Below, piece after piece: positions 2,186-4,761 of a stretch of DNA of 64,000 nucleotides. The DNA comes from Clostridia bacterium. Its GTDB lineage: Bacteria; Bacillota; Clostridia; Christensenellales; DTU072. The notes beneath the pieces were generated by a model, which worked only from the letters and a program-made list of their open reading frames with translations, did no database searches and was not told the origin of the DNA. Position numbers and translations under genes: made by a program. Location: positions 440 through 64,439 of the forward strand of contig JAFXIQ010000041.1 of assembly GCA_017533005.1 (NCBI GenBank), written 5' to 3'. How positions within the stretch are numbered: the stretch's first letter is position 1; every line of letters begins with the position of its first letter.

Positions 2186-2860
2186 TTATATATTCGGGAT
2201 AGACCAATCGATAGGCTCCTTGCCTAACTTCTCTAGAATGGCGTTAGCTCTAGAAAAATGCTTGCAACCGAAGAAGCCGTAGTATGCCGAAAGCGGGGAT
2301 GGGTGTGGAGCTTCTAACACAAAATGATTAGTATTGGTTATAAGCTCTTTTTTTGCTCTCGCAGGTGCCCCCCATAACAAAAATATCACGGGCTCTTCGC
2401 GCTTATTTAACGCCTTGATTACGTTATCCGTCACAAATTCCCAACCCTTCTTCTTGTGTGATAGCGGTGAATGTGCACGCACCGTGAGTATGCTGTTCAA
2501 AAGCAACACTCCACGCTTCGCCCACGGAGCTAGGTATCCATTATTAGGAATTGGGATACCTAAATCACTATTTATCTCTTTATAAATATTTTGTAACGAC
2601 GGTGGAACTTTCACCCCGGGCTTAACGGAAAAACTCATTCCGTGTGCTTCTCCCGGATTGTGGTAAGGGTCTTGACCTATAATGACTACTCTAACATCGC
2701 TATAAGACGTAGCCTTAAGCGCATTAAAGATATCGTACATATCGGGGTATACGGTTTCTTTGCGATATTCTTCAGCAAGAAAGGTGCGTAAGACCTTATA
2801 CGTATCCGACGCAAAAGTGCTCTCTAATATTTTATCCCATTCATTTCCTATATTAACCAT
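2186..2860 (-). CDS. ung: Uracil-DNA glycosylase
   Basis: 224 aa with the family-1 UDG motifs GQDPYH and HPSPLSA. Confidence 0.95.
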   Translation of the reverse strand: MVNIGNEWDKILESTFASDTYKVLRTFLAEEYRKETVYPDMYDIFNALKATSYSDVRVVIIGQDPYHNPGEAHGMSFSVKPGVKVPPSLQNIYKEINSDLGIPIPNNGYLAPWAKRGVLLLNSILTVRAHSPLSHKKKGWEFVTDNVIKALNKREEPVIFLLWGAPARAKKELITNTNHFVLEAPHPSPLSAYYGFFGCKHFSRANAILEKLGKEPIDWSIPNI

Positions 2861-2891
2861 AAGAGCATTATATACCCTTATGTAAAATTTG

Positions 2892-3059
2892 TCAATTAAG
2901 CGTATTGCAAGGGTTGTTACAGAAAAGAATTATCATACATAGCGCTAGAATGTTGTTATTTGAGCAACAACCGTTATTGCAAGTATCGTTGCAACAACAG
3001 CCACCATTACACAAAAATATCAAAAGCAAAGCAAGCGTACTATTATTACCTAAATTCAT
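2892..3059 (-). CDS. 55-aa Cys/Asn-rich small hydrophobic peptide (unknown function)
   Basis: Track ORF is 2892..3137, but ATG 3059 has AAAGGAG 7 nt upstream. Product is MNLGNNSTLALLLIFLCNGGCCCNDTCNNGCCSNNNILALCMIILFCNNPCNTLN, with 10 Cys and 14 Asn. It is built from two hydrophobic-then-C/N-rich units. Confidence 0.55.
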   Translation of the reverse strand: MNLGNNSTLALLLIFLCNGGCCCNDTCNNGCCSNNNILALCMIILFCNNPCNTLN

Positions 3060-3152
3060 ATAGTCTCCTTTCAACAAAATATGTCGTTTCTCTACAATAT
3101 GCGTGGAAATCTTCAAACGTGCATAATTTACAATCAAACGGGAGGTTTATAT

Positions 3153-3524
3153 ATGGAAACGATTATTCTCGACAACCTTGATACCGAAGAAATCTTCAAA
3201 GAATACATTCCGTCTAATGCAGACCTCGCCGATATGTGTCAGTTTTTCTCAGTTTTTACAGACGTCACAAGAATGAAAATGCTAGCTGCACTATCAATAT
3301 GCGAGTTATGCGTTAGCGACCTAGCGTATCTTCTTAAATTCAATCAAACGACGGTTTCGCACCAATTAAAAATCCTGCGTGATGCAGGAATGGTTGCGAC
3401 TAGACGCGATGGGAAAATTATTTACTACAGAGTAACCTGTCCACACATTAACGAAGTTATGCTAACGGGAGCTACCTACCTATGCGACGTGCATAAAAAG
3501 AAGTTTAGTGAAGGTTTTTCGTGA
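3153..3524 (+). CDS. ArsR/SmtB-family metalloregulator
   Basis: Starts at ATG 3153, preceded by GGGAGG. The wHTH region is LSICELCVSDLAYLLKFNQTTVSHQLKILRDAGMV, an ELCVxDL-type motif. Additional C-terminal Cys/His are present (TCPH, LCDVH). Confidence 0.85.
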   Translation: METIILDNLDTEEIFKEYIPSNADLADMCQFFSVFTDVTRMKMLAALSICELCVSDLAYLLKFNQTTVSHQLKILRDAGMVATRRDGKIIYYRVTCPHINEVMLTGATYLCDVHKKKFSEGFS

Positions 3525-4053
3525 TTTTTTCCACGATTGGCTTGAGCCATTTATATATCCAAATTAATAAAAAGTCGTAAACGATTGCTATCGCAACGAA
3601 CAATAAATTTAATACGAAGTATAGTAGTCCTTCTCCCATATTGATAACAATACCCATTGCATCGAAATCAATAAACAAAACGTCCGTTAAATAATACAAG
3701 ACAAGGAATACGAATGAAGCGTAAACTATCTTGATAGGATAGCTTATATACCATTTAATTCTGTCACTTTTATCTTCTAAAAACACCGTTAAAATGGTAT
3801 AAAATCCCCCTACCAAAACAAACGACAATATGCTGATGTTCGCAAAAATCGCACCAAGCCCACATACTGCAATATAGCTCAAAATTGCTTCGCGATAGTA
3901 TTTTTGTGTAAGTGGCAACATAATTGCAATACCTGCGAGCACGTTAAACGTAATCGTCAAAGTCTTGACGTAAAAAGATGCTATTACACACACTAATGCG
4001 AGGGCTGAGCTTATACCTGCAAGTGCAAGTCTTTTGGAAGAGAATTTTTTCAT
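3505..4053 (-). CDS. Polytopic membrane protein of unknown function
   Basis: 182 aa with several long hydrophobic segments. Its 3' end overlaps the convergent ArsR gene by 20 nt. I recognise no motif. Confidence 0.6.
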   Translation of the reverse strand: MKKFSSKRLALAGISSALALVCVIASFYVKTLTITFNVLAGIAIMLPLTQKYYREAILSYIAVCGLGAIFANISILSFVLVGGFYTILTVFLEDKSDRIKWYISYPIKIVYASFVFLVLYYLTDVLFIDFDAMGIVINMGEGLLYFVLNLLFVAIAIVYDFLLIWIYKWLKPIVEKITKNLH

Positions 4054-4101: not shown

Positions 4102-4761
4102 TTAACAACAAGAAATCAGGTCGCCACCCATACATTCGCAACAGCAATCTGCGCAAATAAGTCCTTGGCAACAATCACACGGTGACATCGCACCTCTTTG
4201 CGTACCATAGTCTACGTTGGAGTTACGATATGAACGATCATCGTTATTCGCATAATAACTGTCGTGGGGATTAGTAGTCGCCCTATTAACCATTCTACGA
4301 TAAGCGTCTTTATACTTGGCATTCGCAGGGTCCATCTCAACGGCAGTCCTTAAATAGTACTCAGCATCGCGTGTTCTGCCTTGAGCATAAAATACTATCG
4401 ATTGCAAAAAGTTCCATTCAGCATCACGGTATGAAATCCTATTCAATACTGCTTGTGCTTCTGCATAACGTTTTTGTTTAACTAACTCGTCTACTCTACC
4501 TAACGTAGGAAAATCTTCTTCAACATCAATTCTTGAAGACGTAGGCGCATCTTCAATAACGTATCTAGACTTCAAAATTTCGTCAGCTTCACGATACGCA
4601 GCCTCTATTTCATCTAGCTTTTCACAAGCCTTCGTGCCTTCTTCGCCTAGCTCAAATCTCTTGCTTTCATATTTTGCACGTTCAGTGCGATACGCTTCAT
4701 AAAGCTCGTTTTGGGTAACGTTATCGCTTACTCCGAGTATCATAAAAGGGTCTTTACGCAT
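4102..4761 (-). CDS. J-like domain / TPR-like protein with C-terminal cysteine string
   Basis: 219 aa. The N-terminus DPFMILGVSDNVTQNELYEAYRTERAKYESKRF resembles a J domain, but ESK replaces the HPD tripeptide. The middle is TPR-like (AEAQAVLNRI...AEYYLRTAVEMDPANAKYKDAY). The last 25 aa are CDCCQGLICADCCCECMGGDLISCC, with 10 Cys. AAGAGG lies upstream of ATG 4761. Confidence 0.75.
   Translation of the reverse strand: MRKDPFMILGVSDNVTQNELYEAYRTERAKYESKRFELGEEGTKACEKLDEIEAAYREADEILKSRYVIEDAPTSSRIDVEEDFPTLGRVDELVKQKRYAEAQAVLNRISYRDAEWNFLQSIVFYAQGRTRDAEYYLRTAVEMDPANAKYKDAYRRMVNRATTNPHDSYYANNDDRSYRNSNVDYGTQRGAMSPCDCCQGLICADCCCECMGGDLISCC

Follow-up and report, generated by a model that had tools for sequence, protein, structure and literature searches.

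In Synechococcus, smtA, a small cysteine-rich gene, lies divergent from smtB, the gene of its ArsR/SmtB repressor, and the two share one short promoter region. Very small hydrophobic peptides of endospore formers include YjcZ (TIGR01732), SpoVM and CmpA, and the cysteine-rich coat and exosporium proteins CotY/CotZ, ExsY and CdeC/CdeM are made from late mother-cell-type promoters. The autorepressor SdpR of Bacillus subtilis, of the ArsR family, is linked in a sporulation context to a membrane protein and to a small, hydrophobic, disulfide-containing peptide (SdpR-SdpI-SdpC). Here we analyze a divergent pair of genes, one encoding an ArsR/SmtB-family regulator (hereafter ArsR) and the other a 55-residue peptide rich in cysteine and asparagine, in a stretch of 64,000 nucleotides (the window) from a Clostridia bacterium of the order Christensenellales, GTDB family DTU072 (assembly GCA_017533005.1, contig JAFXIQ010000041.1, positions 440 to 64,439). 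The original prediction, made from the letters of this stretch, suggested that the pair may be an SmtB/SmtA-like, membrane-embedded metal-buffering or metal-responsive peptide system and named a YjcZ-like sporulation peptide as the alternative. The best explanation of the data presented here is that the pair is a cassette specific to spore-forming Christensenellales, a two-gene unit of an ArsR/SmtB-type repressor and a divergent small-peptide gene. We found no description of this cassette in the literature.

The cassette resembles smtB/smtA in layout only. Unlike SmtA, its peptide is hydrophobic, has no histidine, no conserved cysteine positions and no metallothionein match; conserved alpha3N and alpha5 ligands are missing from the regulator, the promoter resembles those of sigma-K, and the cassette is confined to sporulating Clostridia. 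With YjcZ, SpoVM and CmpA the peptide shares very small size, hydrophobicity, occurrence in endospore formers and a likely mother-cell promoter, but it has two hydrophobic runs with cysteine/asparagine tracts and is always paired with its own ArsR, a pairing that to our knowledge is not known for those peptides. High cysteine content and a late mother-cell-type promoter are common to the peptide and to CotY/CotZ, ExsY and CdeC/CdeM, a likeness that suggests, by analogy, possible disulfide cross-linking in an outer spore layer. Those proteins are, however, larger and soluble and have no sequence relationship to the peptide, and the cysteine content of the cassette is highly variable among orthologues. 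SdpR-SdpI-SdpC likewise has an ArsR-family autorepressor beside a membrane protein, a small hydrophobic cysteine-containing peptide and a sporulation setting, but the ArsR of the cassette scores below the SdpR cut-off, no SdpI domain is present, the peptide has no signal peptide and the membrane protein persists alone. Tests of membership in the metallothionein, SmtB-alpha5, ArsR-alpha3, YjcZ and SdpR/SdpI classes were all negative, and in its working the cassette would come closest to a small structural or membrane peptide gated by a repressor.

The two genes and their ribosome-binding sites are as follows.

2892-3059, minus strand: peptide gene, 55 aa, MNLGNNSTLALLLIFLCNGGCCCNDTCNNGCCSNNNILALCMIILFCNNPCNTLN, with ATG at 3059-3057 and TGA stop at 2894-2892
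3065-3071, minus strand: Shine-Dalgarno site of the peptide gene, AAAGGAG, 5 nt upstream of the ATG
3140-3145, plus strand: Shine-Dalgarno site of the ArsR gene, GGGAGG
3153-3524, plus strand: ArsR/SmtB-family winged-helix regulator, 123 aa, with ATG at 3153

The genes are 93 bp apart. The peptide contains 10 Cys, 14 Asn and neither Lys, Arg nor His in 55 residues, and is built of two short hydrophobic helices rich in Leu, with a tract of Cys, Asn and Gly after each. The spacing, the strong Shine-Dalgarno sites, the composition and an internal duplication of the peptide had all been pointed out in the original prediction and are borne out; the two-helix repeat is imperfect in the window peptide, and in sister genera the unit LALLLIVLCCGGCG occurs twice exactly. 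It is also correct that the open reading frame (ORF) list of the window hides the peptide, which appears there solely within an 81-aa TTG-started ORF (2892-3137). Both the 55-aa and the 81-aa product are absent from a collection of 15 billion proteins in which the ArsR is present, so the peptide has been missed by gene callers in this species, as had been expected. Peptides of relatives have been called in some genomes, each time as 'hypothetical protein'.

Using the neighbouring 182-aa membrane-protein gene as an anchor, we fetched 34 related loci from metagenome-assembled genomes (MAGs) of Candidatus Stercoripulliclostridium, 'Christensenella sp.' and Christensenellales. The gene order J-domain/TPR protein, membrane protein, ArsR, peptide and ung is conserved among them. 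The original prediction had proposed to score co-occurrence with ArsR and conservation of the peptide frame, and the pair held up on both counts. A divergent small ORF of the same build is found in 27/27 ArsR-bearing loci, with the frame and start kept (some of these genes start with GTG or TTG) and a correctly spaced GGAGG or GGGGG site before every start, and it is missing in 5/5 loci that have intact flanks but no ArsR; this pairing is far beyond chance. In one clade the ArsR-peptide pair is inverted relative to ung, so the two genes move as a unit. The ratio of nonsynonymous to synonymous change (pN/pS) in the peptide was 0.03-0.30 in 28 pairwise comparisons, and one pair of loci encodes an identical protein despite 17 synonymous differences. 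We regard it as nearly certain that the gene pair is genuine and conserved. Three metagenome assemblies of the window species show zero differences across 2757-3358, a stretch that includes the peptide gene and the intergenic region, and several single-nucleotide polymorphisms in the flanks.

The same loci bear on a different explanation, namely that the ORF is a regulatory upstream ORF or leader of ung, or a chance ORF in a promoter region. In most loci ung does follow directly on the peptide ORF, on the same strand and without an intervening terminator, but ung has its own promoter in every locus, and the peptide is therefore not its leader. In addition, the peptide is not upstream of ung in the clade with the inverted pair, and its protein sequence is under strong purifying selection. 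The own promoter of ung, which matches the consensus at 12/12 positions in the window (ung appears to be leaderless in the window's clade), together with the inverted pair rules out a role as leader or upstream ORF, and we give this explanation as a whole next to no probability.

The peptides of the window's family follow the pattern M-x-(G/Q)-N-N-(S/T)-L-(A/P)-LLL-x-x-L, a Cys/Gly/Asn/Asp linker, (N/K)-x-x-LA(L/M)(L/C)L-x-x-L and a variable tail. Only Leu and Ala occupy invariant columns of the alignment, and there is no invariant Cys column. The 24 distinct family peptides are 43-70 aa long with 2-12 Cys each, and among their 1283 residues there are 15 Lys and Arg together and no His. Having no Lys or Arg, the window peptide would be invisible to tryptic proteomics. 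A lipoprotein or Sec signal peptide was ruled out from the sequence, in which a positive N-terminal region and a lipobox are lacking and Lys and Arg are almost absent. AlphaFold2 places helices at residues 3-19 and 36-47 with low confidence (predicted local distance difference test, pLDDT, 56), which made the model unusable for a fold search. A single-sequence protein search with the peptide returned no relatives, these being detected by profile only, and a profile search of 1.84 billion representative proteins gave 15 clusters only; those with a name are without exception 'hypothetical protein', from MAGs of Clostridia or Christensenellales. None of 19 family members is matched by a Pfam or NCBIfam model. 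The alternative of a YjcZ-like sporulation peptide is supported in one part and fails in the other: a place in sporulation fits better than metal buffering, given a restriction to SpoIVA-positive genomes and a sigma-K-type promoter (both described below), but none of the 19 members matches the YjcZ model TIGR01732 at E <= 10.

The distribution of the cassette follows that of sporulation. SpoIVA is encoded in the window genome (643 bits, in excess of the cut-off), as are two sigma factors of the sigma-E/K type (256 and 252 bits, both short of the sigma-K cut-off of 298.65); one of the two has an N-terminus that we take to be pro-sigma-K-like. The peptide profile is positive in 60/81 genomes of the window's GTDB family; in the other families of the order it gave one marginal hit among ~240 genomes. 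Within the window's family the peptide is found in 59/71 SpoIVA-positive genomes and in none of the 10 SpoIVA-negative ones save for one marginal 18-bit hit (Fisher p = 3e-7 to 1e-5, phylogeny being ignored). Orthologues of the ArsR, defined as high-scoring at profile E <= 1e-33, are more widespread and occur in 93/251 genomes belonging to many families of the order. SpoIVA is present in 92 of these 93 genomes vs. 120/158 of the remaining genomes (p = 1e-7, again ignoring phylogeny), and the single genome with an ArsR orthologue and no SpoIVA is 84% complete. Both SpoIVA and the cassette are missing from genera g16 and g7 and from genomes G007, G145, G178 and G141, the relatives of which have both; at least six independent SpoIVA-negative lineages are without the cassette. 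Direct checks of two congeners agreed with the profile counts: the SpoIVA-positive G021 has ArsR plus MNNLLPLLLVLLLSGDGENNIMLALCLVLLLSDSGGSGGTDGSCGCTL in the usual synteny, and the SpoIVA-negative G007 has a CadC-like ELCVCDIC paralogue only and no peptide. A sporulation-linked role of the cassette is therefore likely.

Two observations on the sporulation genes themselves deserve mention. The sigK-like gene (contig C50:2764-3444, outside the window) has AC-N17-CATATAAT just 5 nt before its ATG and no Shine-Dalgarno site, and may be leaderless and autoregulated. The dipicolinate gene dpaA (TIGR02853) is undetectable in the window genome and in most genomes of the family despite the presence of SpoIVA, so dipicolinate would have to be made another way or not at all.

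The 27 family intergenic regions were aligned by anchoring on their one invariant element. The features of the region in the window are as follows.

3093-3101, both strands: shared promoter core, reading CATATTGTA on the minus strand, a sigma-K/E-type -10 (CATAnnnTA) for the peptide, and TACAATATG on the plus strand
3119-3120, minus strand: putative sigma-K-type -35 of the peptide gene, an 'AC' in the context tgcACg, with 17 nt between it and CATATTGTA
3071-3076, plus strand: sigma-A-type -35 hexamer of ArsR, TCAACA, overlapping the 5' leader of the peptide on the opposite strand
3127-3134, plus strand: second conserved element, TTTACAAT, family consensus tTTAnnAT, found in the information profile

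The anchor element, GCATATTGT, is invariant in 27/27 loci and lies 35-42 nt upstream of the peptide start. The AC columns are nearly invariant as well (consensus gtaACaaa), and the layout of the peptide strand over the 27 loci is ATtnTAAa, 5 nt, gtaAC, 17 nt, GCATATTGTAGA, ~25 nt, the Shine-Dalgarno site and the start. In C. difficile and B. subtilis the sigma-K consensus is an AC at -35 and a CATATAAT-like -10, and the sigK P2 promoter carries CATATAAT plus AC (PMC3789822). The sigma-K pattern (AC, a 16-17 bp spacer and CATAnnnTA) is present as AC-N17-CATATTGTA in the window and in all 27 loci, and a consensus scan found no sigma-A-type promoter on the peptide strand. The same genome has AC-N17-CATATAAT before its sigK-like gene and a sigma-E-like CTATT-N14-CATAGACT before spoIVA. 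Across the genome, the expression AC-N16-17-CATAnnnT[AG] has 13 matches in 1003 upstream regions. The exact 9-mer core occurs 22 times in the genome, nearly always within genes, a distribution that does not point to a regulon. The core CATATTGT(A/G) recurs in cassettes from further families of Christensenellales.

On the ArsR strand, the promoter scan found TCAACA-16-TACAAT at 3071-3098 (9/12 consensus), with CCGACA read in place of TCAACA in the sister clade. Its -10, TACAAT, is contained in the plus-strand core TACAATATG, the reverse complement of the peptide's -10. The peptide and ArsR promoters would therefore share a -10 region on opposite strands and would be mutually exclusive. Element TTTACAAT, situated 18 nt upstream of the ArsR ATG and 6 nt from the AC of the peptide promoter, is either a proximal -10-like box of ArsR or a part of the ArsR leader or operator; no extended dyad surrounds it.

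From this arrangement we infer a sigma-K-dependent, ArsR-gated spore-envelope peptide. The back-to-back promoters would overlap in one invariant 9-bp core, a mother-cell sigma-K-type promoter on the peptide strand and a sigma-A-type TACAAT promoter on the ArsR strand, and since the core is shared, RNA polymerase could occupy only one of them at a time. ArsR, made in growing cells, would occupy the shared region and keep the hydrophobic peptide off; during sporulation the peptide would be made and would enter a membrane or an envelope layer of the forming spore, and there its cysteines could become cross-linked by disulfides. Sharing of the core by both promoters would account for all nine of its positions being frozen. 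For the model as a whole we put the chances at about even. A bolder version is possible, though we offer it tentatively: the core CATATTGTA/TACAATATG might act as a strand-switch, read by sigma-A polymerase into ArsR during growth and by sigma-K polymerase into the peptide in the mother cell, a developmental toggle whose product would be a new class of fast-evolving, Lys/Arg-free, Cys-rich hairpins in the spore envelope throughout the order.

Several points weigh against the sigma-K and spore-envelope model. The co-occurrence statistics ignore phylogeny, as mentioned above. The cassette is missing from 12 of the 71 sporulating genomes of the family, and it must therefore be accessory, not essential for sporulation. 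The sigma-K assignment is a consensus match, and the invariance of the core could stem from the sigma-A -10 on the opposite strand or from an ArsR operator. Calibration of the motif on late sporulation genes was uninformative, as dpaA is absent and the 13 genome-wide matches mostly precede proteins without a family. A search of the intergenic regions for a palindromic operator turned up a loose CGAA...(T)CG pattern in the promoter spacer but no dyad that was consistent. Finally, contigs carrying the peptide ORF occur in 3/4 further metatranscriptome runs at a depth like that of ArsR, ung and the upstream operon, which argues mildly against a strictly late-sporulation gene.

No RNA run contains the window's own species. 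Chicken-gut metatranscriptome assemblies of two relatives contain the peptide ORF: one contig extends from 12 nt upstream of the peptide's start to within ung, and another, 151 nt long, maps to the ORF. The contigs carry no strand information, expression can be read from their depth only poorly, and carried-over DNA may have contributed. They do not refute transcription of the peptide, nor do they show stage specificity. An apparent silence of the peptide in one relative at 95% identity proved to be an artefact of strain divergence, since at the 85% level its coverage is like that of the neighbouring genes. Contig ends near the promoter were considered as transcription start sites and discarded because they coincide with strain-variable positions.

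The metatranscriptome depth would suit another explanation, in which the peptide is a thiol/redox- or envelope-stress-responsive membrane peptide, repressed by ArsR and made in vegetative cells, its link to sporulation reflecting shared ancestry only. A single alpha3 Cys is retained in 41/46 ArsR orthologues, as in redox-sensing ArsR relatives, and the window ArsR matches BigR at 50 bits. That score is, however, far below the BigR/SqrR cut-off of 155, Cys-free ArsR orthologues retain the cassette, and the peptide strand has no sigma-A-type promoter. Nor would shared ancestry readily fit the absence of the cassette from the independent SpoIVA-negative lineages. We consider this explanation rather unlikely.

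A role in metal homeostasis was the central suggestion of the original prediction. If the pair worked like SmtB/SmtA, Zn, Cd, Cu, As or another thiophilic metal of this kind would free ArsR from the shared promoter, and the Cys-rich peptide would buffer or sense metal at the membrane. Parts of this stand. A repressor gene is divergent from a small Cys-rich one, no solved structure is closer to the window ArsR than SmtB (E = 6e-14), and ArsR belongs to Pfam HTH_5 (PF01022; 53 bits vs. a cut-off of 22) and to the ArsR/SmtB metalloregulators of NCBIfam NF033788 (79.8 bits vs. a cut-off of 55). The regulator motifs cited as ligand candidates, SICELCVSDL, TCPH and LCDVH, are indeed in its sequence, giving a CxxC in alpha3 and a C-P-H and a C-D-x-H near alpha5. 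Moreover, the ArsR orthologues of family f11 (loci L048 and L049), and of that family alone, carry the complete As(III)-type motif CVCDLC.

The ligands are nevertheless not those of a metal sensor kept with the cassette. In the alignment to SmtB, C-P-H falls at D104-H106, Tyr at His117 and Asp at Glu120, so that the alpha5 ligand positions hold Cys, His, Tyr and Asp instead of Asp, His, His and Glu, and the alpha5 site of SmtB/CzrA (D-x-H-x10-H-x2-E/H) is absent. The Cys pair or triad of ArsR/CadC-type alpha3 sites (ELCVCDL[C]) is absent too, the window's CELCVSDL having one canonical Cys and one extra. This second alpha3 Cys (SICELCV), TCPH and CDVH are found in no orthologue, and in four cassette-keeping orthologues even the single alpha3 Cys is replaced; one orthologue has no Cys whatever. 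The recognition helix, NQTTVSHQLK in the window, is essentially invariant order-wide as NQ(T/S)TVSHQL(K/R). The peptides have no invariant Cys (1 to 18 Cys), no His and no metallothionein family match, and no metal transporter lies nearby. Because the ArsR ligands are unconserved and the Cys content of the peptide is variable, the metallothionein analogy is unable to explain the family, and it also leaves the restriction of the cassette to sporulating genomes unexplained. Judged from the orthologue sequences, the conserved working of the cassette does not rest on metal sensing, and we find the SmtB/SmtA-like explanation quite improbable. In the window genome a lineage-specific thiol or metal input through the extra Cys and His residues of the regulator is still conceivable.

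The cassette extends over the order in architecture more than in peptide sequence. In 16 of a neighbourhood sample of 20 ArsR orthologue loci, ArsR faces a small ORF that encodes two hydrophobic runs and tracts rich in Cys and Asn; the ORF is divergent from ArsR in 15 of them and upstream on the same strand in one. The sampled cassettes belong to families f1, f11, f13, f21, f24, f29, f33, f36 and f42. Such partners of ArsR occur in at least eight families beyond the window's own. Partner peptides of other families have the same architecture, are unrelated in sequence to those of the window's family and contain 1-18 Cys. The upper value is from L065 (family f1, genus g3), where 18 of the 61 residues of the partner peptide are Cys (MCCNNILPLMLIMCCCCGNG...). 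Thiol numbers, on ArsR and peptide alike, differ widely among lineages.

The conserved membrane protein next to ArsR raises the further possibility of an SdpR-like circuit, in which the peptide would be a secreted or membrane-active factor (a cannibalism-like toxin, a bacteriocin or a signal) and ArsR an autorepressor possibly controlled via the 182-aa membrane protein. This polytopic protein is always adjacent, and the window ArsR has a weak match to the SdpR model NF033789. The match is at 46.5 bits, however, vs. a cut-off of 100, and the membrane protein has no SdpI or other Pfam match. Its gene persists in loci without ArsR and peptide and is therefore a member of the upstream operon. Neither a signal peptide nor a leader is present in the peptide, and no processing or export genes are found nearby. 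We strongly doubt that the cassette works in this manner.

The remaining observations concern the neighbouring genes, of which ung is immediately downstream of the peptide.

2186-2860, minus strand: ung

A perfect sigma-A promoter, TTGACA-17-TATAAT, lies at 2867-2895 on the minus strand, where it overlaps the TGA of the peptide gene and ends 6 nt before the ung ATG. With the promoter ending so close to the ATG and no Shine-Dalgarno site, ung appears to be leaderless. The sister clade keeps the arrangement as TTGACx ... TGTAATAT ... ATGGT, and more distant genera have a normal GGAGG leader. On the other side, the 3' end of the ArsR gene overlaps tail-to-tail with the membrane-protein gene (3505-4053, minus strand). 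At 3373-3389 on the minus strand, inside the ArsR coding region and on the strand of the convergent membrane-protein operon, lies a terminator-like hairpin, TCCTGCATCACGCAGGA with TTTTT after it, which could end transcripts of that operon within the ArsR gene. The J-domain-like/TPR protein (4102-4761, minus strand), like its counterparts in all related loci, ends in a nearly invariant cysteine string, LICADCCCECMGGDLISCC. Many short metatranscriptome contigs from different organisms stack exactly on this motif (L026 3942-3994), which must therefore be widespread and expressed.

A profile of the peptide family would recover the missing gene in many hundreds of genomes. The regulators of the cassette appear to be an example of ArsR/SmtB-type proteins with degenerate metal sites recruited for something besides metal homeostasis. 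Christensenellales, most of them uncultured, are abundant in the gut and pass from host to host as spores, the composition of which is almost unstudied. A cassette that most sporulating Christensenellales retain, and that disappears along with sporulation, is a new candidate for a component of the spore envelope or for a developmental checkpoint in these bacteria.

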